From Escherichia coli (GTDB lineage: Bacteria > Pseudomonadota > Gammaproteobacteria > Enterobacterales > Enterobacteriaceae): 64,000 nucleotides of DNA. A model generated the notes under the pieces. It was given only the letters and a program-made list of their open reading frames with translations. It had not been told where the DNA came from and made no database searches. Positions 1 to 40,128 of this stretch are shown piece by piece. Position numbers and translations under genes: made by a program. Positions within the stretch are counted from its first letter, which is position 1. The number at the start of each line of letters is the position of its first letter. The stretch is taken from the NCBI RefSeq assembly GCF_003018235.1, contig NZ_CP027439.1; one strand, 5' to 3'.

Positions 1-1
1 C

Positions 2-1996: not shown

Positions 1997-2001
1997 TCAA
2001 A

Positions 2002-2031
2002 ATCACCGGAGCCCCTGCTCCGGTGATTTTT

Positions 2032-2033
<2 letters not shown>
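2002..2033 (+). terminator. Rho-independent terminator after RND gene
   Basis: GC hairpin caccggagc/gctccggtg followed by T-run (attttttc) right after stop codon. Confidence 0.6.
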
Positions 2034-2955
<922 letters not shown>

Positions 2956-3067
2956 TTAATCATGAGAAGGGTTCATAGACGCAATCATTTTAGCCTCGTT
3001 ACTCTCAATAATCACAGTTGATACACTTCTTCACAGTTAAATTCTCCAATTGCTCAGCAGGTTTATA

Positions 3068-3838: not shown

Positions 3839-3848
3839 GATAAATATA

Positions 3849-3878
3849 AAAAAGGCGGTATATTCTACCGCCTTTTTT
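3849..3878. terminator. Bidirectional hairpin terminator between convergent genes
   Basis: aaaaaaggcggta-tatt-ctaccgcctttttt, stem flanked by A-run and T-run. Confidence 0.65.
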
Positions 3879-3880
3879 AA

Positions 3881-4936
3881 TTACGCCTTCAATGAGGCCA
3901 TATCGATCACAAAGCGATATTTTACATCACTCTTTAGCATCCGCTGCCAGGCCGTGTTAATATCCGAAATATTAATCAACTCAATATCAGACGTTATCTG
4001 ATGCTTTGCACAGAAATCGATCATTTCCTGTGTCTCCGCAATCCCACCAATGACCGAGCCAGCCACCGATTTTCGTCCTAAAATCAGCGGCGCGCTGTTC
4101 AGCATCGGATTCAAGTCTCCCAGATACCCCACAAGCACCAGTGTTCCGCTCAGCGCCAGCGTCGGAATATAGGGATTCAGATCATGCACATAAGGAACCG
4201 TATCGATAATCAAATCAAACTGGTTATGTGCTTCCTGCATCTGCTTTTCATCGGTTGAAATAACAATATGCGTGGCCCCCAGACGGCGAGCATCGGCCTC
4301 TTTGTTCGGCGAACGACTGAATAACGTGACTTCCGCACCCAGCGCTTTGGCTAATTTTATCGCCATATGCCCCAGACCACCCAACCCAACGACCACAACT
4401 TTGCTGCCCGGGCCAACATTCCAGTGACGAAGCTGTGACCAGGTGGTGATACCCGCGCACAGCAGCGGTGCTGCACCTTTTAAATCCAGCGTATCAGGTA
4501 CTTTGATAACGAATTTTTCGGTGACCACAATCTTGTCCGAATAGCCGCCATAGGTTGGCATATGGTCATGCCTGTCAATGTCGTTATAGGTTAAGGTATT
4601 GCCCTCTTCACAGTACTGCTCCAGCCCCTGCTCACAGGGCTTACAATGCTGGCAGGAGTCCACCATGCAACCTACACCGGCATAGTCGCCCACGCGGAAT
4701 TCGGTCACCGCCTTGCCAATCTGAGTCACTCGGCCAATGATTTCATGCCCCGGCACCATCGGATATTTTACACCGCCCCAGTCATTAAACGCATTGTGGA
4801 TGTCTGAGTGACAAACGCCGCTGTATAAAATCTCGATAACCACATCGTTATCGCGCGGATCGCGGCGAACAAAATTGTGTGGTACTAAATCCTCTTTCGC
4901 GGCAAAAGCGGCATAACCTTTCACATTTAAGGTCAT
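3881..4936 (-). CDS. Zinc-type NAD(P)-dependent alcohol dehydrogenase (YahK/cinnamyl-ADH-like)
   Basis: GVCHSDIH zinc motif, GHEIIGRV, GLGGLGHMAIK Rossmann motif; start at ATG 4936 (MTLNVKG) preceded by GGAG. Confidence 0.9.
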   Translation of the reverse strand: MTLNVKGYAAFAAKEDLVPHNFVRRDPRDNDVVIEILYSGVCHSDIHNAFNDWGGVKYPMVPGHEIIGRVTQIGKAVTEFRVGDYAGVGCMVDSCQHCKPCEQGLEQYCEEGNTLTYNDIDRHDHMPTYGGYSDKIVVTEKFVIKVPDTLDLKGAAPLLCAGITTWSQLRHWNVGPGSKVVVVGLGGLGHMAIKLAKALGAEVTLFSRSPNKEADARRLGATHIVISTDEKQMQEAHNQFDLIIDTVPYVHDLNPYIPTLALSGTLVLVGYLGDLNPMLNSAPLILGRKSVAGSVIGGIAETQEMIDFCAKHQITSDIELINISDINTAWQRMLKSDVKYRFVIDMASLKA

Positions 4937-5013
4937 CGTTGAATCTCCGAATAAGAAATGAAACGACATGATGGTCACACGGCGGCCATCATGTCCTTGG
5001 AAGAGTAAGAGGG

Positions 5014-5412
5014 TTATTGCGGGCGTAATTCGCCATATTTATAAGATGCCGTTGCGCCGCCATCAATCAGCAGATCGCTGCCGGTAATGTAGGTACCATT
5101 AGGCCCAAACAGAAACTCTGCCAGCGCACCAATCTCATCCGGCGTGCCTCCCCGCCCTGCCGGCGATTTATCAAGCATATTGCGATAAAACGCACCCCGT
5201 TCTGCGCTATTAAGCTCGTCATAGGCTAGGGGCGTAAAGATGATCCCGGCACTGATGCAGTTAATTCGCGCCCCACGTTTGCCCCACTTCACTGCTTCTG
5301 ACATGACACGGAGTGCATTACAACGCTTGGAAATCTGGTAGGCGTATAAGCTGTCTTCAATATCTTTCATCAGTGGCAACTCGAGCAGTTCCTCCGGCGG
5401 TAACGGGAGGGC
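5014..5412 (-). pseudogene. Truncated SDR oxidoreductase (C-terminal ~130 aa only), paralog of the gene at 6366..7193
   Basis: Translation LPLMKDIEDSLYAYQISKRCNALRVMSEAVKWGKRGARINCISAGIIFTPLAYDEL... aligns to the C-terminal half of the intact SDR; N-terminal half absent. Confidence 0.8.
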
Positions 5413-5535
5413 AGAATTTTCAAGATGTAGGCGTTTTATTTTATGGTTAATAATCACCGCCACTCTTATGGTGAGAGCATAAAAAAGCCCCCACGGGCTT
5501 TATTACTAAATTCAATACAAACAACAAATTATGCT

Positions 5536-5573
5536 CTTAACGTACGTTTTCGTTCCATTGGCCCTCAGACCCC
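5536..5573 (-). repeat. Tn3-family 38-bp terminal inverted repeat (solo end)
   Basis: Reverse complement GGGGTCTGAGGGCCAATGGAACGAAAACGTACGTTAAG matches the Tn3-family IR consensus GGGGTCTGA...TGGAACGAAAAC...CGTTAAG. Confidence 0.8.
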
Positions 5574-6270
5574 TCATACGGCTCTCGATGTATTCGTGGC
5601 AATCGGTTGGAATAGCAAAGGGTAACTGGTTATCCCGTAATGATTTGTCAAAATCGCCAGATGGGATCAGATAATCATCGAAATTCCTGTATCGGCGAGA
5701 TCCCTTTACCCAGATGTCACCTGAACGCAAGACTCCCTTCAGCTCATTCAGCACGCAAAATTCGTAATATTTTCGGTCAATGCCGGTGGGAGTGATCACC
5801 ACCTTTCTCCAGCTTTCCGGGATAAACCTGGTTGGCGCGGAAGGTGGTACTTTTCGGAGTTGTTTTCGATACATCTCTCTGACGGTATCAAGCGCGTCAC
5901 TGAGCTGCATTGCGGTAGGTGCAGCCCTGAACTGCAACGCGGACAGCATCCGGGGGGCGTATTTACGCAGCGTACTGTATTTTTCTGTGATTAGATGCAA
6001 CGGGTCGAAGTTGTCCTTACGTGACAGGAGCCGCGTCTCTTCCACACTGTTGATAAATTCCTGCCAGGGAAGGACGTCTTCTATTGCGGCCCAGGGATCT
6101 TCACCGGATTCTCTGGCATTAAGCAATGCCTGCCCGACGGTAACGTATTGCTTCAGCTTACTCTGAATCAGCTTTCCCGTTTGCTGGAGTCGTTCGGCCT
6201 GCGTGCGTTTTGCCCTGCTGAACAGACTGCCCAGAATACGCTCGTGCAGATCAATAACTTCGTCAGTCAG
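5574..6270 (-). pseudogene. Internal fragment of a Tn3-family transposase (TnpA), truncated at both ends
   Basis: ORF 5512..6306 translation (LSALQFRAAP, KYYEFCVLNELKGVLRSGDIWVKGSRRYRNFDDYLIP) resembles the middle part of Tn3-type TnpA; ~230 aa of an expected ~1000. Confidence 0.5.
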
Positions 6271-6336
6271 CGTTCTAATGATACTGACGATTAATATAAA
6301 TAACATAGCCCAGCCAGAAGGCTGGGCTAACAGGAA

Positions 6337-6364
6337 GGCAGACTATTCACGTGTAGATAGTCTG
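6337..6364 (-). terminator. Hairpin downstream of SDR gene
   Basis: gcagactat-N10-atagtctgc, 9-bp stem immediately 3' of the minus-strand stop. Confidence 0.4.
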
Positions 6365-6365
6365 C

Positions 6366-7193
6366 TTATGGCCTGAGTTCCCCGTATTTATAAGAGGCCG
6401 TCACGCCGCCATCAATCAGAATGTCACTCCCGCTGATATACGTCCCGGCTGGCCCGAAAAGGAGTTCGGCTAATGCACCTATTTCATCCGGGGTTCCACC
6501 TCGTCCGGCTGGCGATTTTTCAAGCATATTCCTGTAAAACTCTCCACGCTCCGGACTCGTTAATTCGTCATAGGCCAGAGGGGTGAAAATAATCCCTGCA
6601 CTGATACAGTTAATGCGCGCTCCGCGTTTACCCCATTTCACGGCTTCCGCCATCACGCGCAGTGCGTTACCACGTTTGGATATTTGATAGGCGTAGAGGC
6701 TGTCATCAATTTCTTTAACGAACGGCAAATCCAGTAATGCCTCAGGTGTCAGCGTGGCTAATGCATCGGCCTGTGACTGGGTCAGGGCATCAACATTCAG
6801 ACGATGACTGGATTGTGAACCGATCACCACAGCGGAGCCTCCGGGGGCAATAACCTTACCAAATTCTTCAAATACGACAGCAGTCCCATATAAATCAACC
6901 CGAAGAATATCTTGGGCTTTGGCCTGTGAGGGGGAGAGCCCCGCTGTATGGATGACGCCTTTTATGTCCCCCAGCTCGGTGGCCGTGCGGACCAGGTTCT
7001 GGACTGACTGTCGGGAACTGACATCAACGACAGCGGTACTGATCGTAAAGCCTGCTTTTGACAGAATTTCTTCGGCTGACTGCGCACTTTCAGCCTTAAT
7101 ATCAGCCAGTAAAATATGCTTACCCACACTGACTCTGCGCGCAATCGCCTGCGCAATTGAGCCACTTCCAATGACCACAATGATCTCTTTCAT
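6366..7193 (-). CDS. Short-chain dehydrogenase/reductase (SDR) family oxidoreductase
   Basis: 275 aa; N-terminal glycine-rich motif IIVVIGSGSIAQAIARR and SDR catalytic YxxxK (YAYQISK). Confidence 0.85.
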   Translation of the reverse strand: MKEIIVVIGSGSIAQAIARRVSVGKHILLADIKAESAQSAEEILSKAGFTISTAVVDVSSRQSVQNLVRTATELGDIKGVIHTAGLSPSQAKAQDILRVDLYGTAVVFEEFGKVIAPGGSAVVIGSQSSHRLNVDALTQSQADALATLTPEALLDLPFVKEIDDSLYAYQISKRGNALRVMAEAVKWGKRGARINCISAGIIFTPLAYDELTSPERGEFYRNMLEKSPAGRGGTPDEIGALAELLFGPAGTYISGSDILIDGGVTASYKYGELRP

Positions 7194-7259
7194 GCGATGT
7201 TCCTTATTGTCGGTGGATCAGTGCGGCCTGATTACAGGCCGCAATCTCACTGGTTGATA

Positions 7260-8408
7260 CTACAATGCGAGTTTAAGGATTGTGGTTAACACATCCGGGG
7301 TGTAGGTCTCAGCCAGCCCGAACCAGCGGGTATTCCCTTCCAGGTTTTCCAGGATACGGGGAAAGTCTGCCTCCGTTATTCCCAGTTGTGACAGACGAGT
7401 TGGGGTACCAATTTTATCAAACCATTTTTCAAGCGCCAGGATGCCTTGTTCAGCGGTTTTCAAACCGAACAGATGCTGCGCAAAACGCTCAAACTGAGAA
7501 GGATTCTGGCTGTGGTACCACTTCATCCATGCAGGCATTACAACGGATAACCCTGCACCATGGGGAACATTAAAGAGGGCTGACAGAGAATGCTCAATCA
7601 TGTGATTAGGGTAGCTGAATCCTGACGTTCCGGCATAGATCAGGCCATTAAGTGCCAGCGTTGCTGCCCATGCAAATTCCGCCCGGGCGTTGTAGTCGCC
7701 CGCATCTGCCAGCAACATTTCCGTCGTCTCCATGACCGTTGCGATAACCGATTCAACCAGACGTGACTGGATTTTCGGCTGCACCGCTGCTGTGAAATAA
7801 CCTTCAATGGAATGGGCGATAATGTCCGCTGCCGAATAGACAAGATAGTCCCGGGAGACCGTCTGCATCAGTGCCGGGTTCACAACGGAGACTTTCGGAA
7901 ACGTATGCACGGAATGCAGAGCAAATTTTTCCAGCGTGGCGTCATTGGTGACAACGGCACCACCGTTCATCTCACTGCCGGTCGCGGCAAGAGTCAGAAC
8001 AGAAAACACGGGTAAGGCAGCTTCGATTTGTCCTTTACCGATAAACAAATCCCAGACGTCGTTCTCATAAAGTGCGCCTGCCGCGACAGATTTCGCACTA
8101 TCCAGTACAGAACCGCCGCCCACGCTTAAAATGGCATCAACCTGGTGAGCACGCGCCAGCTGAATACCTTCTCTGACCTTAGAAATCAGCGGGTTGCTGA
8201 CTATCCCGCCAAACTCTACATACTGAATGCCGTGCTTTGTCAGGCTGTCGCTGATAGTGCTGAACAAACCATCTCGCTTGATGCGGTCACTGCCAAACGC
8301 CAGCAGAACTTTACTGACTTTCTGCTCTGCTAGGATCTGGCCGATCAGCTTTTCTTTGTCTGCACCAAATTCAATTCGGGTCGGGTTATAAAAACTGAAA
8401 TTATCCAT
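7260..8408 (-). CDS. Iron-containing alcohol dehydrogenase (YqhD/BdhA-like aldehyde reductase)
   Basis: 382 aa, N-terminus MDNFSFYNPTRIEFG typical of Fe-ADH family. Confidence 0.85.
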   Translation of the reverse strand: MDNFSFYNPTRIEFGADKEKLIGQILAEQKVSKVLLAFGSDRIKRDGLFSTISDSLTKHGIQYVEFGGIVSNPLISKVREGIQLARAHQVDAILSVGGGSVLDSAKSVAAGALYENDVWDLFIGKGQIEAALPVFSVLTLAATGSEMNGGAVVTNDATLEKFALHSVHTFPKVSVVNPALMQTVSRDYLVYSAADIIAHSIEGYFTAAVQPKIQSRLVESVIATVMETTEMLLADAGDYNARAEFAWAATLALNGLIYAGTSGFSYPNHMIEHSLSALFNVPHGAGLSVVMPAWMKWYHSQNPSQFERFAQHLFGLKTAEQGILALEKWFDKIGTPTRLSQLGITEADFPRILENLEGNTRWFGLAETYTPDVLTTILKLAL

Positions 8409-8541
8409 CAGTCACCTCTGTGAAATTAAGTCTGTGAATGCTGTTCTGTGTAACAACACTATAAGCAACTGACTCACAACCAACCAGATGGTAATATGAT
8501 GAATCAGTTACAACTAAATGATGTAAATAAGAGTACTGCTC

Positions 8542-9498
8542 ATGATTAATGAACTGCGTTCAGTGACCACCTTTATCCGGACTGTTGAGCTGGGAAGTCT
8601 GAGTAAAGCTGCTGAAGCCCAGCAAATATCACCTCAGGCGGCGAGTAAGGCCTTAAAGCAACTCGAAAGCTCTCTGGGCGTGAGGCTGTTTCACCGCACA
8701 ACACGGAGTATGTCGCTCACTGAGGAAGGGCAACGGTTTCTCGAAGCAGCCAAACCAGCACTGACCGGGTTACAGCAGGCTTTTGCTTCTGTCCGGCAGA
8801 CGCGGGAGGGGTTTTCCGGGCCATTGCGCATAGTGGCTCCGCGTTCTGTTGTACAGCATATTATTCACCCTGTGCTGATTGAATATTGTCGGCTTTACCC
8901 GGAAGTTCAGCCTGATGTCCAGCTTGATGACGGGGTGGATAACTGGGTTGAGAAGCGCGTGGATGTTGGTTTTCGGATTGCTGTTTCACCGCAGGATGGG
9001 CTGATTGCCAGACGCCTGTTTCCGTTGCAACTGATTATATGCGCATCGCCTGCATATCTTCGCAAATATGGTATGCCGAAATCACTGCATGACCTCAGTA
9101 ATCACCGCTGTAATACATTTCGACATGCCGCAACCGGGCGATTACTTCCCTGGACTGTGAAGGAAGGAGACAACATACAGGAGCACTATGTTAAGCCTGC
9201 CATGTCGACAAATGATGAGATGCTGGAATTACATGCCGTCCTTGCCGGAGAAGTTATTGCTCAGGTTGCAGCACCGACAGCAGCGCAATACATACGATCA
9301 GGTCAGCTTGTGCCACTGTTACTGGAGAATATCGCTGATGTCCACAGCCTGTTTCTCTATTATGGGAGCCGGGTCGCTCAGCCACTTCGTATTCGCCGTT
9401 TTATTGACCTTGCTGTTGAGCGCCTGGCCAGTAGAAAGGGCTTTGTTTTTTCCTCAGAAGAACTGAGACAGGCACATATTGAAGGTATTGCAATGTAA
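8542..9498 (+). CDS. LysR-family transcriptional regulator
   Basis: HTH region plus LysR effector domain; divergent from Fe-ADH; paralog of 12146..13105. Confidence 0.9.
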   Translation: MINELRSVTTFIRTVELGSLSKAAEAQQISPQAASKALKQLESSLGVRLFHRTTRSMSLTEEGQRFLEAAKPALTGLQQAFASVRQTREGFSGPLRIVAPRSVVQHIIHPVLIEYCRLYPEVQPDVQLDDGVDNWVEKRVDVGFRIAVSPQDGLIARRLFPLQLIICASPAYLRKYGMPKSLHDLSNHRCNTFRHAATGRLLPWTVKEGDNIQEHYVKPAMSTNDEMLELHAVLAGEVIAQVAAPTAAQYIRSGQLVPLLLENIADVHSLFLYYGSRVAQPLRIRRFIDLAVERLASRKGFVFSSEELRQAHIEGIAM

Positions 9499-9717
9499 CA
9501 GTACTGTTCTTCCCGGTATCGAAGTTAATACCTTCAATAAATCCATCACACTGGATGACTTTCTCCCAGATGCACTTCCCTCTCTCACACACAACTCGTT
9601 TGTATAATGTTGCGTGGTGCGAGGGACATCTGCTCCCGCAGCGACCGGAAACATCCCTGCCGTCAGGCAGAGAGCGAGGGACGCTGCCAGACCCTGCATT
9701 TTTTTGTCTATTTTCAT
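9454..9717 (-). CDS. Possible small secreted protein (signal-peptide-like N-terminus)
   Basis: MKIDKKMQGLAASLALCLTAGMFPVAAGA looks like a signal peptide; overlaps the 3' end of the LysR gene by 45 bp; no other support. Confidence 0.2.
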   Translation of the reverse strand: MKIDKKMQGLAASLALCLTAGMFPVAAGADVPRTTQHYTNELCVREGSASGRKSSSVMDLLKVLTSIPGRTVLLHCNTFNMCLSQFF

Positions 9718-9823
9718 ACAGATTTCCTGATACAGGAACGCCCGATTCCTGTCTGTGAATACGTCATGCCAACGAACAGAGAAAAACGGCCCCTGTACGG
9801 AGCCGTTAGCATGGTAAAACAGG

Positions 9824-10600
9824 TTATGACAGGTTACCGGCGTAGACCTGTGTCTGGCCGCCGTCGATGGTAAGATTTATACCGTTGATAAAACTGCTGG
9901 CGTCGGATGCCAGGAACACGACGCCGTCCCCGATCTCATCAGCACGACCAACACGTCCGACGGGGATCTCCGCTGCACATTTGGCGGCGAAGGCTTCAAC
10001 CTCCTCCGGGGTCATACCCTGCACGGTTTCATAGCCTTCAGTCGGGATAGCCCCTGGACTGATAACATTCACGCGGATATTGCGTGTCTTGAGCTCAGTG
10101 GTCCAGACTCGCGCCATGCCGATAACTGCCGCTTTGGTCGCGGCGTAAGTCGTGTATTCCGGCAGACCAATAAAGGCGGTCATGGAGGACGTCAGAATGA
10201 TTGAACCGCCAGCATTCATAATGGGCAGCATGGCTTGTACGGTGAATAACTGCCCCTTAAGGTTGATGTTCAGCATGTTGTCGAAAAACTCTTCGCTCAC
10301 GTCCTCTAGTTTCTTGCCTATGTAGTAGCCGGCATTAGAGAAAATGATGTCCAGATGACCTTTTTCCAGCTGAATGACTGAGGCGACATTCACCATGTCT
10401 TCCTTGCGGGAGACATCGGCAACGATGGCACGGGCATTTGGGCCAATCTGTTTAATCGCCTCATCCAGGACGTCCTGGCGGCGGCCCACTATATAGACAA
10501 AAGCACCTTCTTCAGCAAGGCGCTTTGCGCCCCCCAGACCGAGTCCCGTTCCGCCACCCGTGACCAGTGCCACTTTACCTTTTAACGTTTGAACCGACAT
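9824..10600 (-). CDS. SDR family oxidoreductase
   Basis: 258 aa; KVALVTGGGTGLGLG cofactor motif and NAG motif. Confidence 0.9.
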   Translation of the reverse strand: MSVQTLKGKVALVTGGGTGLGLGGAKRLAEEGAFVYIVGRRQDVLDEAIKQIGPNARAIVADVSRKEDMVNVASVIQLEKGHLDIIFSNAGYYIGKKLEDVSEEFFDNMLNINLKGQLFTVQAMLPIMNAGGSIILTSSMTAFIGLPEYTTYAATKAAVIGMARVWTTELKTRNIRVNVISPGAIPTEGYETVQGMTPEEVEAFAAKCAAEIPVGRVGRADEIGDGVVFLASDASSFINGINLTIDGGQTQVYAGNLS

Positions 10601-10630
10601 AAATATTCCTCTGTTTGTAATACAGGTGGC

Positions 10631-10924
10631 TTACGCGATCGTCTGCACGACGCTCATGCAGGAGAGATCGATAATGTCTTTGATTTTCTCTCCGAGGGCC
10701 AGATGATCAGGGGCGCGCATATAGCGCTCCCAGTCCTCCCGGGAATCGAACTCGGCAATCAGCACCACTGCCTGGGTTTCTGACCAGTCGAGTGTCTTTT
10801 CAACGCTGAAGGCTTTGATCCTCGGGACGATGGAGGGCAATTGGCGAAGGATGTCCACTACAGCAGACAGCTCGGCCTCAGTCTTACCTGGATATGTTTT
10901 GCCTATGAAAATATGTTTCAACAT
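10631..10924 (-). CDS. Dabb-family stress-responsive alpha/beta-barrel protein
   Basis: 97 aa; size and sequence pattern typical of Dabb domain proteins co-transcribed with oxidoreductases. Confidence 0.6.
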   Translation of the reverse strand: MLKHIFIGKTYPGKTEAELSAVVDILRQLPSIVPRIKAFSVEKTLDWSETQAVVLIAEFDSREDWERYMRAPDHLALGEKIKDIIDLSCMSVVQTIA

Positions 10925-10935
10925 TCGGGGCTCCT

Positions 10936-11997
10936 TCAGGCATTTTTCAGCGTAGACATGTCAATAGAGAAACGATATTTGACGTCACCCTTTTCCAGGC
11001 GGACATAAGCTTCATTAATCTCCTGGATGCCGATGACTTCCACATCGGATGTGATGTTGTGCTGACCGCAGAAATCGAGCATTTCCTGCGTTTCAGCAAT
11101 CCCGCCAATAAGTGACCCGGACAGGCTACGGCCGCCAAAAATAAGGCTGTAGGCTGAGACATCAATTTTGTCAGCAGAAGCGCCAACCAGCGTCAGATTA
11201 CCTTCCGGATGCAGCATATTGAGGTAAACATTCAGATCATGTGGAGCGGATACGGTATCGAGAATAAAATCAAACGTACCGGCGTGAGCCTGCATCTCTT
11301 CCGGGTTTCGTGACACCACTACTTCATGAGCACCAACACGGAGTGCATCTTCTTTCTTGGATGGAGATGTGGTGAAGAGAACCACATGTGCGCCCAGGGC
11401 GCGGGCAAATTTTACGCCCATATGTCCTAGTCCGCCCAGACCAACGATACCCACTTTCTGACCGGCCTTTACACCCCAGCGACGGATAGGGGAATAGGCA
11501 GTGATGCCCGCACATACCAGCGGAGCAACACCTGCCAGATCGAGATTTTCCGGTACCTGAAGAACAAAATGCTCATCCACCACAATGCTTTCGGCATAAC
11601 CACCGTAGGTCACCGGAGCAGTACCGTAATTATCCGGTGAGTTATACGTCAGCACCTTGGTAGGGGAATACTGTTCACGATTCGCTTTACAGTGAGGGCA
11701 GGTTGGATCGGCATCGACCAAGCAGCCCACAGCGACAATATCGCCAGCCTTGTGTTTTGTCACCGCCGTGCCCACCGAGATAACCCGGCCTACAATTTCA
11801 TGACCCGGAACAATCGGGTAAATGGTTGGCATGGCGCTGCCGAACTCATCACGCACATGGTGAATGTCAGAGTGGCAAACCCCGCAGAACAGAATATCAA
11901 TCCGGACATCGTGCTCATTCGGATCACGACGCGGGATCGATAACGGTGCAAGTGGGGATGTTGCGGACGTGGCCGCATAAGCTTTGGTTACGTACAT
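10936..11997 (-). CDS. Zinc-type NAD(P)-dependent alcohol dehydrogenase
   Basis: GVCHSDIH, GHEIVGRV, GLGGLGHMGVK motifs; paralog of 3881..4936. Confidence 0.9.
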   Translation of the reverse strand: MYVTKAYAATSATSPLAPLSIPRRDPNEHDVRIDILFCGVCHSDIHHVRDEFGSAMPTIYPIVPGHEIVGRVISVGTAVTKHKAGDIVAVGCLVDADPTCPHCKANREQYSPTKVLTYNSPDNYGTAPVTYGGYAESIVVDEHFVLQVPENLDLAGVAPLVCAGITAYSPIRRWGVKAGQKVGIVGLGGLGHMGVKFARALGAHVVLFTTSPSKKEDALRVGAHEVVVSRNPEEMQAHAGTFDFILDTVSAPHDLNVYLNMLHPEGNLTLVGASADKIDVSAYSLIFGGRSLSGSLIGGIAETQEMLDFCGQHNITSDVEVIGIQEINEAYVRLEKGDVKYRFSIDMSTLKNA

Positions 11998-12145
11998 TCT
12001 TTGCTCCCGTTGATCCCGGCCAGAAGTGCCGGGAAGTGCGACTACTATAGGGAGCTAATTATCAATATAATAGATAGTAAATCATTGAAGCTGTTGCAAG
12101 TATTAATTGATAATAATGTGAGTTATCCTGATAGGGAAAGGCATC

Positions 12146-13105
12146 ATGCTGACAAAAGACATTCGCGCGATAGATATACTGGCGAAAGCTGTGGAACTGG
12201 GCAGCCTGCGCCAGGCCGCTCTCGCAAAAGGGGTGACCTCACAGGCCGCCAGCCAGACACTCGCTCAACTTGAAGACTCACTGGGGGTGCGCCTTCTGCA
12301 CCGCACAACTCGCAGCCTCTCTCTGACAGAGGAGGGCAGGCAACTGCTGGAAGCCACACAACCGGCACTGGCGGTACTGGACCGTGCCCTTACGCGTGCA
12401 CGGCAGGCAAAGGACGAGGTTGCCGGTCCGTTGCGTATTGTTGGTCCCCGATCGGCCTTCACACCGGTTTTATGGCCAGTCATTGACGAATACTGCCGGC
12501 GCTACCCGGACGTTCAGCCAGAAGTGCAGCTTGATGACAACGTGGGGGACTGGGTTCTTGATCGAGTGGACGTGGGGTTTCGGTTTGGTTCTCCGCCTGC
12601 AGAGGGGCTTATCGCACGCCCGCTGTTCCGTGCGCAACTGATTATCTGTGCATCACCGGCATACCTCCGCACGCATGGTGTACCCCGTTCGCTGGAGGAA
12701 CTAGCGTACCACCGCTGCAGCGTCTTTCGCCATCCGGGAACGGATGCAATATTTCCCTGGTACGTAAATATAGGGGGAGAAATCCAGACACGAGAGTTTC
12801 CTCCAACCGTGGCAACAAACAGCACAGACATAGAAGTTGAGGCCACGCTGACCGGACAGGTCATCGCACAGCTCTCATCATTGTCCTCAGCTGCGCTGAT
12901 CCGCGCAGGCCGTCTTGTGCCCTTACTAACAGAGCATGTGGCCAGCCACCTTCATCTGTACGCTTACTACGGGAGCCGCAAAGCGCAGCCGCTGCGGGTC
13001 AGAAAATTTATCGAGCTCGCCGTCGAACGGTTAACGGACAACCGGGAGCTGACTCTGACTACAGATGAACTGCAGACGTATTCTGCTGAAAGGCTGAACC
13101 AGTAA
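12146..13105 (+). CDS. LysR-family transcriptional regulator
   Basis: 319 aa, HTH plus effector domain; divergent from the ADH gene. Confidence 0.9.
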   Translation: MLTKDIRAIDILAKAVELGSLRQAALAKGVTSQAASQTLAQLEDSLGVRLLHRTTRSLSLTEEGRQLLEATQPALAVLDRALTRARQAKDEVAGPLRIVGPRSAFTPVLWPVIDEYCRRYPDVQPEVQLDDNVGDWVLDRVDVGFRFGSPPAEGLIARPLFRAQLIICASPAYLRTHGVPRSLEELAYHRCSVFRHPGTDAIFPWYVNIGGEIQTREFPPTVATNSTDIEVEATLTGQVIAQLSSLSSAALIRAGRLVPLLTEHVASHLHLYAYYGSRKAQPLRVRKFIELAVERLTDNRELTLTTDELQTYSAERLNQ

Positions 13106-13725
13106 GTGACATGTACGAAAACGCCCTTTGTGAAAACAAGACGGGATTCAGATTCATAACCCAGTCAGATATGTCTGCTCCTGACACTTAGCTGACTTTT
13201 AACGGGAGAACAGCCTGGCGGGCTTATATATACAGTTATCGCAATAATTTGCGTGATTTCCTGTGCTGGGGACAATAATCCGCTCAGCACAATAATCGTT
13301 CTTAATTAGTGCCCCTCATTCATCAATCCCTCTCATCTTCTCCGCAGATCCGAAAACCTCCAGAGTAGGATCTTGTCTCACCCTACCGGCGCTGCACACC
13401 ACGACAACACAAGATGTAGCGGCTCTGTCAACTGCCTTGGCTACCAGATGTTGTGTTTATCTCTTCGTTCTGTGAGGGGCGCTGCACGCCGGAAAACGGA
13501 GCTTTGCTCAGGGCGTAATCGTGCTACACTTCCGGAAAGTCGTGAATACGTGAAAAATCGGATCACCTGAAAACCGCCATCCGTTAATTTAATCCAGTGG
13601 TTATCAGGCTGCTAATTATCAGACAAAGAAAACATCATGGCAGGGAAAGTCCTGTGTGTGATAGTCAGGTGAGTTAGCGGTGGTGAGGTAATGATTGCGG
13701 TTTGTGATTATTTATTGGAAAAGGA

Positions 13726-26074: not shown

Positions 26075-27349
26075 TCATCGTATCATTGCCACCGGGAGGT
26101 CAGTCCAGCGTGTCGTATATGCTGGTGACAACATTTCGCGCTTCATTTGCCACTCAGGAGCTATGCCTCGCCCCGCAAACCACACTTTCCCAAGTCCAGA
26201 ATGGTTAATACCGTCCACGACTTTCATCAATTGATTACTGTTGCTTCGGGGCAGAGTATCATCAAACAGATTCAACTGTGAAACTCCGGTCGGCGTAAAA
26301 TCGTTCAGCATGCAGCCTGCCCTTACATAGCGGTGGCCATTCACCCAGATCCTGTCCAGGGCTTTGACGGCAGCGGCAATGATGTCCGGTGTATCCTGCG
26401 TGGGGATGAGCAGCTTTTCACTGGCCAGATTACCGTAGTAGGGCTCATTTACGGCAAACGGCGATGTTTTCACAAATACGACAATATGCCTGCAGAACTG
26501 CCGTTCGCCGCGCAGCTTTTCCGCAGCACGCTCAGCGTACTGACAGACTGCCTGACGCAGGGCTTCATACGTTGTGATACGCTCCCCAAAAGACCTGCTG
26601 CAGACAATCTGCTGTTTCGGCGGGGGAGCTTCTTCAAGCGAAATACAGCTTTCTCCGTTGAGTTCCCGGACCGTTCTCTCCAGTACAACGTTGAAATTCT
26701 TCCGGATAAATACGGGGTTCGCGCGCGCCAGCTGCAGTGCAGTGGTGATGCCCATTGTGCTTAGTTTCCTGGATATCCTGCTGCCAACTCCCCAGATTTC
26801 TTCCACCGGCTGCAGTGAAAGCAGTTTCTCCGTTCGTTTCGGATTGTGTGATGTCAGGGCAAGCACACCACCGAATTGTGGCCATTCCTTGGACGCCCAT
26901 TGCGCGCTTTTAGCCAGCGTTTTGGTTGGCCCCATCCCGACACCTATTGTCAGCCCCGTTCCTGAGCGCACGTGTTCGCGTAGCTGCCGCCCAAAGTCCT
27001 CATAGTCGATGCAGTTGTCTATACCACGGATATCGAGAAACATCTCATCGATGCTGTACTGTTCCACACGTGGCGCCAGCTCTTCTAGGTGAGTCATCAC
27101 CCTGTTAGACATGGACGCGTACAGCTCGTAATTGCTTGAGAACACGATGATCTGCTCAGAGAATTCCGCCTTCTTCAGTTGAAACCACGGCACTCCCATT
27201 TTGATACCCAGCAACTTCGCTTCTTTTGAACGGGCGATAACGCAACCATCATTGTTACTGAGTACCACAACCGGCTTGTTTCGCAAATCAGGTCGAAATA
27301 CTTTCTCGCAGCTGGCATAAAATGAATTCACATCAGCGAGCGCAAACAT
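26075..27349 (-). CDS. umuC: Y-family translesion DNA polymerase V catalytic subunit (UmuC/MucB-type)
   Basis: 424 aa; N-terminal [41 protein letters not shown]. Confidence 0.9.
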
Positions 27350-27771
27350 CAGCGTACCTCACGCGTCTTGTGTATGAATGCCGTCACTACCCCGAAAATC
27401 TGCAGATCTTCCGGATAGAGGGTGGGGTAGGCTGGATTCATCGGCAGCAGGGCAATACGGGGCTTAAGCTGCAGGCGTTTGACAGTAAACTCGCCGTCAA
27501 TTTCAGCAATAACGATGTCCCCCTGCAGTGGTTTTTCAGCTTTATCGACCACCATCAGATCACCGGAGTGCAACCCCATATTCTGCATCGAATCACCTAT
27601 GGCCCGGACAAAGAAAGTTGCAGCCGGACGTCGGATACAGTAGGCATTCAGATCCAGTTCGTCTTCGGTGTAGTCTGCGGCCGGTGACGGAAAACCTGCT
27701 GGGCAACGTTCGGTGAAAAGTGGTGCGGTAGATAGTTCTGGTTCAGGTGCCGCTGGAACAAAAAGGATCAT
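27349..27771 (-). CDS. umuD: UmuD/MucA-type protein (LexA-like self-cleaving peptidase)
   Basis: GFPSPAADY and GDSM...K motifs; start MILFVPAAP; stop overlaps umuC start. Confidence 0.85.
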
Positions 27772-27793
27772 GGTATACTTCTTTAAATACCTG

Positions 27794-27809
27794 TTTATAT
27801 ATACAGTAT
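27794..27809. promoter_or_regulatory. LexA (SOS) box upstream of umuDC
   Basis: CTGTTTATATATACAG = CTGT-N8-ACAG, ~25 bp upstream of umuD start. Confidence 0.8.
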
Positions 27810-27892
27810 AATTTAAGATATTTTCCATTCCGCAAGCTGAATTTTACGCTGCCATGCCAGGTGATTGTTCTGGCGAACAAAACAGATGCGTG

Positions 27893-27901
27893 TTATCCAC
27901 A
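27893..27901. promoter_or_regulatory. DnaA box
   Basis: TTATCCACA exact consensus, upstream of the iteron cluster. Confidence 0.6.
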
Positions 27902-27974
27902 GAACCGGTGCATAACCCTGTGAGTTGATATCCGCTCTGCTCTGAAGGACAGGGTTTTTCGGCGGATTAGGTAA

Positions 27975-28220
27975 AGTCTACTGTATGCGACATTTTGATT
28001 TAGTTTTTTCCACTGGCTAGATCCAATAAATATATCCATATAGACCCTTAGAGATCCTAGAAGATCCCCGATCGCTGCAGGCCGCTCCGTTACTGGTCTC
28101 ATAGATGATTAATGTCTACTGTGTGCTACATAATGTCTATTGTATGCGACATAATATCTATTGAGTGCTACAAAAGGTCTACTATGTGCTACCATAAGGT
28201 CTACTGTGAGCTACTAAGAT
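27975..28220. repeat. RepFIB-type upstream iteron cluster
   Basis: Repeated ~21-bp units TCTACTGTGTGCTACATAA / TCTATTGTATGCGACATAA / TCTATTGAGTGCTACAAAA / TCTACTATGTGCTACCATAA / TCTACTGTGAGCTACTAAG plus nearby GATC sites. Confidence 0.8.
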
Positions 28221-28251
28221 ATTTTTTGTTCACACTAAACAGGGAAATAAA

Positions 28252-29139
28252 ATGTCTAATAAAATCAATGAACAATTCCTGAATATCAAGGAAATTAACA
28301 AGCGAACGGGAGAAGAGCTCACGCTTATATCCACAAGTGAGTCCAGTGTTCAGGTAGTTCCGTTGATGCGCCTTGGTGTTTTTGTCCCGACTCTTAAAGG
28401 GACCGATAAAGCTAAAATTACCCGCAATACCGTTGATGCTTCGAAAGATTTTAATACGCTTTCGCTCTACAGCTCTGAGGGATTCGAGAAGGTCATTATT
28501 AGTGGTCCCCGACTTGATATGGACACTGATTTTAAAGTTTGGGTTGGCATAATTTCCGTTCTGACAGACAGTGATCATCCGATCACCAAAGAAGGAAAAA
28601 TCGTGATACCTTTCAGCGAATTTGCGCATCGCTGCGGATTCCCACGGGGGAGGATGAAACAGGAACTTCGCACTCGCCTGAAAGACTCGATAAAGAAGAT
28701 TATGTCCACAATTGTCGAATTTTCGAAAGACTCCGGGAAACCAACAGAGAAGACGCAGATGGTGCAACTCATGGGGGAGTCCACAATAGACATTGGTAAT
28801 GATCTTGTTCTGCTTACACCCAGTATGTCTTTAAAAGATCTTTACGCCAGTGAGTATAAAGTCCTGCTCAAGCTAAAAGCGCTAAAAAGCCTGGCTCGTA
28901 AGGAGTCTGCTCAGGCTCTGTATCTCTATTTGGAAGGTCTGCCCACAAATCCTGCTCCAGTTAGTATTAAGCGTTTTCGCGAACGTCTCAACCTTACATC
29001 CAGAACTGCACTGCAGAATGCCACCATTAAGAAAGCTCTAAAGCAGCTGGAAGAAATTGGTTATCTGGAATATCAGGAAATGAGGAGTGGCAGGGACATC
29101 GCGTTTAATATCATCAAACGTAATCCGAAGCTTCAGTAA
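28252..29139 (+). CDS. repA: Replication initiator RepA of a RepFIB-type (iteron) replicon
   Basis: 295 aa; PVALMRLGVFVP-like N-terminus, ITGPRLDMDTDFKVW and NPKL C-terminus match RepFIB RepA. Confidence 0.85.
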   Translation: MSNKINEQFLNIKEINKRTGEELTLISTSESSVQVVPLMRLGVFVPTLKGTDKAKITRNTVDASKDFNTLSLYSSEGFEKVIISGPRLDMDTDFKVWVGIISVLTDSDHPITKEGKIVIPFSEFAHRCGFPRGRMKQELRTRLKDSIKKIMSTIVEFSKDSGKPTEKTQMVQLMGESTIDIGNDLVLLTPSMSLKDLYASEYKVLLKLKALKSLARKESAQALYLYLEGLPTNPAPVSIKRFRERLNLTSRTALQNATIKKALKQLEEIGYLEYQEMRSGRDIAFNIIKRNPKLQ

Positions 29140-29245
29140 GCTACTGTATGCTACATATTGTCCCATTATCTTGAGCGATAACTCCCAAAGTATTCATCTC
29201 GCTGTTATGAGACATTTGTTAATAGCATACAGTAGACATTTCAGT
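29140..29245. repeat. Downstream iterons of the replicon
   Basis: GCTACTGTATGCTACATATTG and inverted ATAGCATACAGTAGACATTTC after repA. Confidence 0.6.
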
Positions 29246-29560
29246 TATGTGGCCTCAGCGTCGTGTGCGGGCTGTGCCGTGCCTCCAACTTAGCCGGGTT
29301 GGCGTTGATGCAAGGGTACGCTTCGCCGCTGCGGTCACCCGGTCCCTCCTTCCCGTCTGCCGTGATTTTCCGGTCGTTCACCCGCTCAGATTTCGCGGTA
29401 TCACCCTCCAACTCCCGTCAGCCGAGTGCGTCAGGCTGCGGCTTCCCTTGCGCCCCTGCATCCCCGCCTTATCGCCCGGCTTTTATGGAGGCACGGCACC
29501 GCCCGGTGTCGCGGAATATGTGAACAACGGAGGAAATCCCATGCAGTATGCGAAACTCCC

Positions 29561-29986
29561 ATGCAGTATGCGAAACCTGTCACTCTGAACGTTGAAGAGT
29601 GCGACCGTCTGTCTTTTCTGCCTTACCTGTTTGGCCTGGATTTTCTGTATGCCGAAGCGTCTGTATACGCGCTGGCGAAACAAATGATGCCGGAATATCA
29701 GGGAGGTTTCTGGCACTTCATCCGCCTGCCGGACGGTGGCGGTTACATGATGCCGGATGGCGACCGTTTCCACATGGTGAACGGTGCAAACTGGTTTGAC
29801 CGTACCGTGAGTGCTGATGCCGCAGGCATCATTCTGATTTCCCTTGTGATTAACCGCCAGTTGTGGCTGTACCACGACAGCGGGGATGCAGGACTGACCC
29901 AGCTTTACCGGATGCGCGATGCGCAGTTGTGGCGTCACATCGAATTTCACCCTGAATGCAACGCGATTTACGCGGCACTGGACTGA
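29561..29986 (+). CDS. klcA: KlcA/ArdB-family anti-restriction protein
   Basis: 141 aa; LSFLPYLFG...[19 protein letters not shown]...[13 protein letters not shown] pattern. Confidence 0.75.
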
Positions 29987-30032
29987 TTAACGGACGGGGC
30001 GGCAATGCCGCCCCTGTAAAGGAGACGAGAAC

Positions 30033-30455
30033 ATGTACTGTACTGTTAAAGAAATTATCCGCGAAGTGCTGGATACAGACGTGCCGGACAGTGAATGCGT
30101 TTTTGCCGTGGTGCTGACACGTGGGGATGTGCGTCACATAGCCCAGGACTGGAGTCTGACAGACGATGAGCTGGAAGCCGTCATGCAGCGGCTGGACGAT
30201 GCCTTTGAGCATGGTGCGGATGTCAGCATTGTTCACGACGTTGTTCGTGAACTGATGGAGGAAAAGCGCGCCAGCCGTCAGGTGACAGTCCCGGCGGTGA
30301 TGCTGGAAAAAGTGATGGCGCTGGCAGGCAGTGAAATGAAGCGCCTGTATGCCGTCGGGAGTGAGAACGGGGGCGACGGTGACGCATTCGTCAGGGAGGA
30401 ACGCGAAGCAATAAACGTTGTGTTACAGGCGCTGGACGGGGAGCACATGTCATGA
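30033..30455 (+). CDS. Hypothetical leading-region protein
   Basis: 140-aa ORF between klcA and the Frpo-like repeat. Confidence 0.5.
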   Translation: MYCTVKEIIREVLDTDVPDSECVFAVVLTRGDVRHIAQDWSLTDDELEAVMQRLDDAFEHGADVSIVHDVVRELMEEKRASRQVTVPAVMLEKVMALAGSEMKRLYAVGSENGGDGDAFVREEREAINVVLQALDGEHMS

Positions 30456-30643
30456 ATATCAGCACGGAAACCCGCGAAATTCTGCGCAATTACAAAGCCG
30501 TGATTAATGCGTGGCGTCGTGAAATGGGACAGAAACCGCTCACCACCGCACAGATTGTTGATGAAATCTGCGATTTTGTGGCGAATCAGCAGGCGGTTTT
30601 CCTCGGTGGTCACTACATCCTTCAGGGCAGCAGAAACAGGTGA
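30452..30643 (+). CDS. Hypothetical small protein
   Basis: 63-aa ORF overlapping the upstream stop. Confidence 0.35.
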   Translation: MNISTETREILRNYKAVINAWRREMGQKPLTTAQIVDEICDFVANQQAVFLGGHYILQGSRNR

Positions 30644-30867
30644 TACAGGGGCAGGCGGTGGAGGCCGCCTGTCAGCCCGCGCGAAAACCCCTGGCAGGCT
30701 GACGCCTGCCGGAAGGGAAGCGGGCCACGCTGACGCGTCGCCCGTTACCCTTCCTGTTTGTGATGTGCCCGGAATGTTTTTTTCTGATGTTATTTTTCTG
30801 TGGTTACCGTGCTTGTTATTGTTCTTCTTCTTTTTCCTCTTCCTCTTCTTTCCGTTCCTCTCCTGTT

Positions 30868-31395
30868 TATGGCTTTTCCGGGCGTCCCCCTGACGGGGCG
30901 GGCTGTCGTGAACGGAGCCAGCGAAGCTGTCTCCGCCCTGGCGGGCTTCCATCCCTGACGCGAAACCCTGGCTTGCAGCGACCGTTCCGGTCGCGCCGCC
31001 TCTGTCGCGCCGTGGCCTGCGCTCCTGGCATCCCGGCAAAAGGCCGCCGGGATGTAAGGGGCAACGCCGTTTCGCGCACGCGCTCTCCGTCGTTGCGGCG
31101 GGCCCCTGCTCATTGCCTGCCGGGTGCCACACACCCGTATGAGTCCCTGTCGCCGGGGGCTGAGACAGCCACAACCTGCCGCACTGACTGTCCAGGGTAA
31201 ATGAACAGCCCACAAAATTTTTTACCCAAAAACCGGTAAAAAATTTTGCGTTCTGCCCAGGACAGGTGCGTCAGGCCGTGGCAGTGATGCCCCTTGCGGC
31301 GAAGGTTCTCAAACGGGTGAAGTTCATACCACAGGGAATACAGCAGCAGGTTCCCGCGAAACGTCAAAACCGCGGCTCCCGAAACTCAACGGGTG
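30868..31395 (+). repeat. Frpo/ssi-like leading-region repeat, copy 1
   Basis: ~500-bp GC-rich element shared with 34163..34700 and 39676..40128; contains hairpin AAAATTTTTTACC-N8-GGTAAAAAATTTT. Confidence 0.75.
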
Positions 31396-31907
31396 ATGTT
31401 CTTTAAAAATCAGGATTTATTTCAGCCTCCGGCAATACGCATTTATTTGTTCTGTCAGTCATCCGGCTGACAGGTAATGAGAACGCAGGAACAGAAGGAG
31501 GAAAACACCGGAAAGCGTCAGATGCAGATATGAAAAAAGCAGGTCAGGGACCTGCTTAATCCATGCCGCAGAGACTGCACGAACAGTTTTTGCGGCTCCA
31601 GTCAATCGTCATAAGAGGCTAAATTATGACAATAAGTATTGTTTCACCTTCCGCAGCGGCTGTAAAGCCCCGCCGTCATCCCCGTTTCAGACGCGAAGAC
31701 ATCCCCGCGCCGGAAATTGACCCCGTGCTGAAAGCCTTCGGGCGACACATAGCCCGGAGTTTTCACCGGGGGCGTGGTGCACACATCCCCGCCATGAAAA
31801 ACACGGCCTTCGGGCAGGTGCTCCGCACACTCGAACTGAAACGCGCTTTTAACTGATGAGGTGAGCCGCCCCGCGAGGGGCGGCAACAGACGGAAGGAGA
31901 ACATTTT

Positions 31908-33315: not shown

Positions 33316-33879
33316 ATGCACAGTCAGTTAAAAGAACGTATCCGGCTGATGCGCGCAAGGCTGGATAACGCCGCGCCGGTTGCTGAAATCCGGGCTGAAT
33401 CTCAGCTTTTTGTGACTCCTGCCCCGGTCTGTGATCGCCTGGTGACGCTGGCGGAGATCAGCAACCGTGATCACATTCTGGAACCCTCTGCCGGCACCGG
33501 GGCCATACTGCGGGCGATTCGGGATACCGCGCCGGGGGCCATGTGTGATGCGGTGGAAATCAACAGCGGGCTGGTCCGGTATCTGCGGGAAAATTTTAAC
33601 GGTGTCAGGGTTCAGTGTGGCGACTTCATGGAATGGCAGCCGGTGCAGTATTACAGCCGGGTTATCATGAATCCGCCGTTCAGCCACGGGCAGGATATCC
33701 GGCATATCCTGCGGGCCTTTTCCCTGTTGCGTCCGGGTGGCGTGCTGGTTGCCGTCTGTCTGAACGGGCCGCGCCAGCAGGAGAAGCTGTTACCGTTTTC
33801 TGACGTCCGCGAGGAGCTGCCACGCGGCACGTTTGCTTATACCGATGTTCCGACGATGATTATTCGTCTGCGTGCCTGA
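33316..33879 (+). CDS. Orphan SAM-dependent DNA methyltransferase (N6-adenine type)
   Basis: SAM-binding EPSAGTGAIL and catalytic NPPF motif; no adjacent restriction enzyme. Confidence 0.75.
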   Translation: MHSQLKERIRLMRARLDNAAPVAEIRAESQLFVTPAPVCDRLVTLAEISNRDHILEPSAGTGAILRAIRDTAPGAMCDAVEINSGLVRYLRENFNGVRVQCGDFMEWQPVQYYSRVIMNPPFSHGQDIRHILRAFSLLRPGGVLVAVCLNGPRQQEKLLPFSDVREELPRGTFAYTDVPTMIIRLRA

Positions 33880-34060
33880 TGACTCCGGGCAGGCGGGAGG
33901 ACAAATGCCCGTCTGCCCGCGCCGGGAAAAGACCGCGCGCCGGTGGCGCTGAAAGGGGCCGCGCTCACGCGCCGCCCCTTACATTACGCGGACATTCTGC
34001 TGTGGGCTTCTGTCTTTTCAGACCTGTCATTTGTCTGTTACTGATGATGTTGTTGTTCCT

Positions 34061-34108
34061 GCTACTGCTACTGCTACTGCTACTGCTACTGCTACTGCTA
34101 CTGCTACT
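34061..34108. repeat. Hexanucleotide tandem repeat (GCTACT)x8
   Basis: Eight perfect tandem copies read directly, followed by a CT-rich tract. Confidence 0.9.
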
Positions 34109-34162
34109 GTTCTTCTTTTTTCTGCTGTTCTGATTACTGCCTGTTTTGTTGTTCTCCTGCTT

Positions 34163-34700
34163 ATGCCTTTTCCGGGCGTCCCCCTGGCGGGGCGGGCTGT
34201 CGTGAACGGAGCCAGCGAAGCTGTCTCCGCCCTGGCGGGCTTCCATCCCTGACGCGAAACCCCGGGCTTGCAGCGACCGTTCCGGTCGCGCCGCCTCTGT
34301 CGCGCCGTGGCCTGCGCTCCCGGCATCCCGGCAAAAGGCCGCCGGGATGTAAGGGGCAACGCCGTTTCGCAAACCGCGCTTCACGTCGTTGCGGCGGGTC
34401 CCTGTCCGTTGTTGTGTCCGGTGCCATTCACCTGTTTAAGCCCCTGTCGCCGGGGGCTGATACAGCCACAACCGTCTCCGCCAGTCCAGGGGTGAAATGT
34501 ACATCCCGCAAAACTTTTTGCCCAAAAGCAGGCAAAAACTTTTGCGGTCTGCCCCCGGACAGTCGTTTCCGGCCGTGGCAGTGATGCCCCTTGCGGCGAA
34601 GGTTCTCAAAAAGGTGATGGTGAATACCGGAGGGAACAAAAGGCAGGTCCCCGCAAAACGTCAAAACCGCGGCTCCCGAAACTCAAAAGATGATGGGGGC
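34163..34700 (+). repeat. Frpo/ssi-like leading-region repeat, copy 2
   Basis: Near-identical blocks to copy 1 (GCGTCCCCCTG...GGCAACGCCGTTTCGC) and copy 3. Confidence 0.75.
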
Positions 34701-34728
34701 TGAAAACATCAACAGAAGGAGGCACATC

Positions 34729-39223: not shown

Positions 39224-39675
39224 CAACCTGGAGGCGGGCGCAGGCCCGCCTTTTCAGGACTGATGCTGGTCTGACTACTGAAGCGCCTTTATAAAGGGGC
39301 TGCTGGTTCGCTGGTAGCCCCTTTCTCCTTGCTGATGTTGTACGGGCATGAACAACCTGACTTCAGGAAGATCGTTTCCCTTCAGGAACGGGGATGAACG
39401 CGCGCCTGCGGCGCCCGTTCTTTTCCCCCGCCTTCTCTGGTTATGGCCTGTCAGAAATCACATCACCTTCCCTGTGATTATTCTCTTTTTCTTCCTGCTC
39501 TGATTCTGACTACTGCAGTGTTGTCCTGTCTGCTAGGCGCACCTTCGGCTCCCGGCTGCCTGGCGGCATCCGGTCGTCAGGCCCGACTCCGACAGGCAGC
39601 TGCTGGCGCACCTGCCAGTCTCCGCCGAACCCGCTGGCGCGGTTTCGGGCTGTCGCTACGGTCCGATGCGTGAAA

Positions 39676-40128
39676 ACCACAGGCTTGCAGCGACCGTTCC
39701 GGTCGCGCCGCCTCTGTCGCGCCGTAGCCTGCGCTCCCGGCATCCCGGCAAAAGGCCGCCGGGATGTAAGGGGCAACGCCGTTTCGCAAACCGCGCTTCA
39801 CGTCGTTGCGGCGGGTCCCTGCCCGTTGTTGTGTCCGGTGCCATTCACCTGTTTAAGCCCCTGTCGCCGGGGGCTGATACAGCCACAACCTGCCGCACTG
39901 ACTGTCCAGGGTAAATGAACAGCCCACAAAATTTTTTACCCAAAACCCGGTAAAAAATTTTGCGTTCTGCCCAGGACAGGTGCGTCAGGCCGTGGCAGTG
40001 ATGCCCCTTGCGGCGAAGGTTCTCAAACAGGTGATGGTTAATACCGGAGGGAACAAAAGGCAGGTCCCCGCAAAACGTCAAAACCGCGGCTCCCGAAACT
40101 CAACAGATGATGGGGGCTGAAAACCAGA
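39676..40128 (+). repeat. Frpo/ssi-like leading-region repeat, copy 3
   Basis: Shares the 3' block with copy 1 and the central block with copy 2. Confidence 0.75.

Follow-up and report, generated by a model that had tools for sequence, protein, structure and literature searches.

A tandem 20-bp duplication at the klcA start of one F-like plasmid lineage, with a predicted strong loss of KlcA translation

The question raised by this locus is what becomes of an anti-restriction gene when the segment that carries its start codon is present twice. In the 64-kb stretch of DNA analyzed here (the window), the 20-nt unit TCCCATGCAGTATGCGAAAC occurs at the start of klcA as two identical copies in exact tandem, in the order ACGGAGGAAA / TCCCATGCAGTATGCGAAAC / TCCCATGCAGTATGCGAAAC / CTGTCACTCTGA, the last of these beginning CTGTCAC. 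The original prediction of a tandem 20-bp duplication at this point is borne out by reading of the sequence, by Tandem Repeats Finder (period 20, 2.2 copies, score 81; the extra 0.2 copy is an imperfect GAAA ahead of copy 1), and by a separate repeat search of the window, which returned the same pair. The coordinates first proposed (29538–29577) and the 19-mer quoted with them were one base off, the true extent being 29537–29576 with a 20-nt unit. An exact 20-nt tandem repeat is expected by chance about 6e-8 times in 64 kb; thus, the pair represents a duplication event rather than a coincidence. The bases flanking the pair are unmatched, and the repeat is not extended on either side, by which the junction is seen to lack microhomology. 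The features of the start region are as follows:

29529–29534, + strand: Shine–Dalgarno (SD) sequence GGAGGA, kept in 12 of 12 aligned homologous loci
29537–29556, + strand: copy 1 of the unit, holding ATG1 (29541–29543)
29557–29576, + strand: copy 2 of the unit, holding ATG2 (29561–29563), the authentic klcA start codon
29541–29588, + strand: out-of-frame open reading frame (ORF) of 15 codons made by the duplication (the uORF), with its TGA stop at 29586–29588
29561–29986, + strand: klcA, encoding a KlcA/ArdB antirestriction protein of 141 aa (PF03230; PDB 2KMG)

The reading frames had been correctly anticipated: the first ATG, near the SD, opens a 15-codon out-of-frame peptide ending at 29588, and the second is in the KlcA frame and opens the 141-aa ORF that runs to 29986. 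The uORF and klcA overlap by 28 nt. The distance from GGAGG (29529–29533) is 7 nt to ATG1 and 27 nt to ATG2.

That ATG2 is the authentic start follows from the near end-to-end alignment of the product, including its N-terminus, to a protein of known structure: residues 5–141 align to residues 6–142 of RP4 KlcA (2KMG_A; E = 1.9e-17). The product also aligns to the ArdB structure 2WJ9, and it matches the Pfam family PF03230 (Antirestrict, ArdB/KlcA family) with 89.7 bits against a cut-off of 25 (E = 1.4e-25). PGAP places the start of klcA in the relatives at the equivalent ATG. Compared with other KlcA/ArdB genes (RP4 KlcA, 2KMG; ArdB, 2WJ9; and the F plasmid protein WP_001198920.1), the window gene is a full-length member, and it shares with the F klcA/ardB homologue (WP_001198920.1) its position in the leading region, its orientation, and a DUF1380 neighbor. 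It differs from other KlcA/ArdB genes in that the start region is duplicated in this lineage only, such that the conserved SD is uncoupled from the start codon. At position 29838, a private change (ATT) gives its product Ile93 in place of the Thr93 (ACT) of the relatives in pE105-3, pDEC5B-4, and F. The exact product is on record at NCBI as WP_106907083.1, "antirestriction protein [Escherichia coli]". A tblastn search of the 64-kb window found no second klcA homologue, the gene being single-copy, and a compensating paralogue in the window was rejected on this ground.

The single-copy arrangement is the ancestral one, in which the SD lies 7 nt from the klcA ATG. When klcA 5′ regions were compared across plasmids, as had been suggested, a single copy was found in each of the 13 comparators whose start region was read, namely F, pE105-3, pDEC5B-4, and ten draft E. 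coli assemblies. The single-copy sequence of pE105-3, GGAGGAAATCCCATGCAGTATGCGAAACCTG, has flanks identical to those of the window, whereas F and pDEC5B-4 share the sequence GGAGGAAAACATCATG; the ten draft assemblies, which carry the DUF1380 allele of the window, have the same SD in every case (10/10). Both the SD and the start codon are thus kept in F, pDEC5B-4, and these ten drafts. Searched with a 261-nt probe, at least 5000 PLSDB plasmids and 4928 RefSeq complete E. coli replicons gave a top match of 92% identity, a ceiling that corresponds to the 20-nt gap. A 61-nt junction probe was covered to at least 80% by no record among 72,556 plasmids and 20,395 E. coli replicons; a match to this probe needs a 28-nt exact word, so that the search is blind to independent duplications in divergent klcA lineages. 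A 30-mer junction pattern had no exact match in GTDB representative genomes, nor in JGI metagenomes.

The public drafts differ in their klcA calls, some giving 100 aa (from Met42) and others 141 aa; in the draft loci L006, L007, L010, L011, L014, and L015 the gene is called at 2152–2454. The shorter calls were considered as further 5′ lesions and rejected, their sequence being identical to that of the 141-aa loci through the start region and up to about codon 45, and they appear to reflect inconsistent gene calling, by which surveys could be misled. Entries labeled "Antirestriction protein (x2)" were likewise set aside as an unrelated adjacent pseudogene fragment.

None of the curated complete plasmids and genomes that were searched has the duplication, which would be consistent with a sequencing or assembly artefact. 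However, the identical duplication is present in the Logan contig SRR18191694_202, a read-based assembly of SRA run SRR18191694 made with a different pipeline, and this one contig encodes the identical KlcA protein. The contig is 100% identical to the window over 26561–30055, including the private positions 29288, 29299, and 29838; the non-synonymous change at 29838 is common only to these two sequences. Over 30056–30843, the two differ at 24 sites and by one 3-nt gap (~3% divergence), with the contig mostly following the pE105-3 haplotype. Because a separate set of reads and a separate assembler yielded the same duplication, on a second and mosaic background, an artefact is unlikely, and the long tra ORFs present in the window argue against an indel-ridden assembly. 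An exact 20-nt tandem duplication is, moreover, an untypical error for short-read or long-read platforms. We therefore regard an artefact, which according to the original prediction would be betrayed by absence from the reads, as extremely improbable, and the duplication as very probably real and heritable. The isolates behind the two datasets may be related, or the Logan contig may be a chimera. Judged from sequence, the allele is confined to one lineage, with a unique KlcA sequence; because it has persisted long enough to stand on two haplotypes, it is at least tolerated. The switch of haplotype just downstream of klcA, recorded at 29890–30056 between the window and the contig, is itself an observation that may reflect either recombination in the leading region or a chimeric contig.

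The position of the duplication within the plasmid bears on its consequences. The window is part of an F-like plasmid and is collinear in its leading region with F 9452–11610. The gene order is a Rep3-family rep (28252–29139, iteron-flanked), klcA, the DUF1380 gene, a 63-aa ORF, ssb, and psiB with related genes; oriT and traM lie near 43 kb of the window, and a tra region with long ORFs is also present. klcA and its neighbors point in the direction of tra, as do leading-region genes whose transcription template is the transferred strand (PMC11541004). The features around the gene are:

29268–29505: large imperfect hairpin in the klcA leader, with arms at 29268–29298 and 29475–29505
30033–30455, + strand: DUF1380 gene with its own SD, downstream of klcA and co-oriented
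30452–30643, + strand: 63-aa ORF overlapping the end of the DUF1380 gene

The DUF1380 gene and the 63-aa ORF are probably operon partners of klcA. The klcA leader (29245–29536, ~290 nt) shares 95.2% identity with the F sequence that precedes the klcA/ardB homologue. In F, this element has been described as a "class 2" single-strand DNA promoter (Wen et al., NAR 2025, PMC12672017) and as the single-strand DNA promoter "Frpo3" (Shaw et al., bioRxiv 10.1101/2025.04.03.647016). In transconjugants, the klcA operon and klcA homologues are induced early (PMC12672017), and leading-region anti-restriction genes bear signs of selection for translational efficiency (bioRxiv 10.1101/2025.04.03.647016). 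The window leader resembles Frpo3/class 2 in homologous sequence, in its long hairpin (arms of 31 nt each, 84% complementary), and in having no conventional promoter consensus for double-stranded DNA: a linear search for a sigma-70 consensus found none in 29100–30100. Folded as single-stranded DNA, the + strand of the leader reaches −82 kcal/mol (z −4.5), and its − strand −68.5 kcal/mol (z −2.9). By homology, the leader is a counterpart of the Frpo3/class 2 single-strand DNA promoter, and a putative promoter here. The duplication lies outside this element, ~30 nt past the 3′ arm of the hairpin, and falls on the ribosome-binding site of klcA, the first gene after it. In contrast to the Frpo3/class 2 elements of the compared plasmids, the duplication lineage has private substitutions at the left arm of the hairpin (29288 and 29299), neither of which is found in pE105-3, pDEC5B-4, or F; 29288A replaces a T that would pair with A29485.

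With an ATG in each copy, and a unit of 20 nt that is not a multiple of three, the conserved SD now serves ATG1 and the out-of-frame 15-codon peptide. ATG2 has no SD of its own, as no purine-rich tract lies upstream of it (GCGAAACTCCC). The expected effect on initiation was approximated by a rough Salis-type thermodynamic calculation, which is crude in that the 5′ end of the mRNA is assumed and kinetic terms are omitted:

Ancestral klcA ATG: dG_total 2.1 kcal/mol, relative initiation 1
ATG1 (uORF) after the duplication: dG_total 5.1 kcal/mol, 0.26x the ancestor
ATG2 (klcA) after the duplication: dG_total 14.9 kcal/mol, 0.003x the ancestor

On this rough model, initiation at the klcA ATG is predicted to be ~300-fold lower after the duplication. 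In RNA fold predictions, the two copies cross-pair (CAUGC with GUAUG) in a hairpin that buries both AUGs, and the local minimum free energy moves from −9 to −17 kcal/mol with the second copy. The structure is no better than that of shuffled sequence (z −0.7), which indicates a by-product of the duplication rather than a selected structure.

These elements suggest the following course. A single event in one F-like (IncFIA/FIC-related) plasmid lineage would have placed the duplication exactly over the translation-initiation region of klcA, which would be the first gene expressed from the class 2/Frpo3 single-strand promoter. The authentic ATG2 would be left 27 nt from the SD and inside the footprint of ribosomes starting at ATG1, so that the two starts would compete, and it would also be held within the new inter-copy hairpin. 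A strong loss of KlcA synthesis is predicted, amounting to a hypomorphic to near-null allele, the size of the loss being that given by the model; residual KlcA would be a trickle at most, supplied by SD-independent initiation or by backward re-initiation after the uORF stop. The in vivo activity of KlcA/ArdB depends on expression level (PMC11602122), and so a large drop in KlcA should matter: the plasmid may be less able to alleviate type I restriction on entering a new host. In addition, ~400 nt of untranslated klcA mRNA could expose the downstream genes to Rho-dependent polarity. Attenuation of klcA expression, one of the effects envisaged at the outset, is thus the reading that the modeling upholds, with a severe rather than a mild effect predicted. 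We consider it likely that the duplication strongly lowers KlcA, and hold with reasonable confidence to the combined reading of a real, heritable lineage allele with a strong, hypomorphic to near-null loss of KlcA translation.

A milder outcome, near-neutral or of slight attenuation, would require useful amounts of KlcA to be made by backward re-initiation at ATG2 or by SD-independent initiation. The strong SD drives the uORF, and many ribosomes would accordingly terminate 28 nt past ATG2; in the phage fr coat–lysis pair, as described by Adhin and van Duin (1990) in the account given in PMC10666635, re-initiation proceeds backward across a 34-nt overlap. The allele also stands on two haplotypes, and PGAP calls the protein intact. 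Against this, termination–reinitiation falls steeply with distance, native E. coli pairs losing 10- to 40-fold within a few to 14 nt (PMC10666635), ATG2 both lacks an SD and is paired in the new hairpin, and no other klcA locus read uses such an arrangement. We judge a mild effect to be unlikely overall, although some KlcA may still be made by backward re-initiation, for which phage fr offers the precedent.

Similar considerations apply to translational coupling as a purposeful arrangement, which had been raised as an alternative to attenuation. The locus resembles trpB–trpA, IncFII Tap–RepA, and the phage fr coat–lysis pair in that a short SD-led upstream ORF overlaps a downstream start on one mRNA. 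Functional coupled pairs are conserved, however, and typically overlap by 4 or 1 nt (PMC10666635), whereas here the overlap is 28 nt and the uORF is a private accident of the duplication that takes the only SD. All 13 comparators have one copy and no uORF, and the uORF stop (29586–29588) does not lie near the downstream start (29561). Coupling by re-initiation across a 28-nt overlap is unlikely, and the suggestion of coupling fares poorly, with the stop so far past ATG2 and the arrangement found in no homologue read.

Three other translational routes to KlcA were considered and rejected. A 186-aa N-terminally extended ORF, opened by the duplication, begins at a GTG (29426) that has no SD, and its product is nowhere on record. 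A −1 frameshift from the uORF into the klcA frame finds no slippery heptamer on inspection of the 15 codons. A hairpin of the T4 gene 38 type, which would bring the SD near ATG2, is opposed by the folding of the 27-nt spacer at only −1.1 kcal/mol; the stable two-copy hairpin, for its part, includes ATG2 itself. No Rfam family was matched at the duplication site, the sole match being a chance sub-threshold CrcZ at 30784–30828.

The duplication might instead be a reversible or selected expression switch, by which a two-copy OFF or low state collapses through slippage to a one-copy ON state and tunes KlcA dosage to the host. Slippage can in principle collapse a tandem duplication, this one is ideally placed to switch translation, and the allele has persisted on two backgrounds. 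Like contingency loci, this is a 5′-end tandem repeat whose copy number decides protein synthesis. Contingency loci, however, have many copies of 1–8-nt units that vary among close relatives, whereas the present repeat has a long, 20-nt unit that occurs just twice, and it is fixed in a single lineage and found in no other. Thousands of plasmids yielded no copy-number series (0, 1, 2, 3…), with the two-copy state restricted to the window and one Logan contig; the lineage has a unique KlcA protein sequence, and the junction is without microhomology. The earlier suggestion of a slipped-strand variant therefore stands insofar as the allele is genuine and rare, with two datasets showing it, but not in the sense of recurrent copy-number variation. 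A selected switch seems very improbable, and we give as little credence to the two-copy state being a maintained low-KlcA setting that is reversible by slippage; were it true, the plasmid would have a heritable yet reversible means of setting the dose of an anti-restriction gene under single-strand promoter control. More speculative is the notion of a processing scar at an RNA-primer/DNA junction just downstream of the single-strand DNA promoter, which also primes complementary-strand synthesis. The best reading of the duplication is as an ordinary mutation in one plasmid lineage, with no new regulatory device or mechanism.

The allele is relevant to annotation, in that WP_106907083.1 is recorded as an intact "antirestriction protein" although its ribosome-binding site is separated from the start codon, and surveys of plasmid anti-defense content by gene presence would count a gene that is probably silent. 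The one- and two-copy forms offer a ready-made isogenic contrast for KlcA dosage in F-like plasmids entering restricting hosts, and the allele also offers a test of how far bacterial ribosomes re-initiate backward.

Several other features of the window were recorded. Upstream of the Rep3-family rep are five 21-bp iteron-like repeats (28110–28214), and just downstream of rep is a perfect 13-nt inverted repeat, CTACTGTATGCTA (29141–29153 / 29223–29235). A non-coding repeat of ~450–550 bp is present in three copies (30859–31398, 34153–34707, and 39674–40124) and matches F regions upstream of ssb (L005 11071–11622) and of the gene at L005 17033; we take these to be putative Frpo1/Frpo2 single-strand promoter regions. 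A perfect hexamer array of CTGCTA x 8.5 (34059–34109) encodes a poly-leucine run in an 84-aa ORF (33879–34133), just past a SAM methyltransferase gene. The array has only 1.5 units in pDEC5B-4, the 8.5-unit form is common to ~92–95-kb E. coli plasmids of bovine and human origin, and one record or more has a longer array; by these unit counts, it is a polymorphic microsatellite of the leading region. At the other end of the window, a cargo block (1–13100) encodes an RND efflux permease truncated at position 1, three LysR regulators, and several alcohol dehydrogenases/oxidoreductases. Positions 1–5405 are only ~88% identical to Klebsiella plasmids, and positions 5400–13363 are 99.6% identical to the E. 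coli plasmid NZ_CP051728.1.
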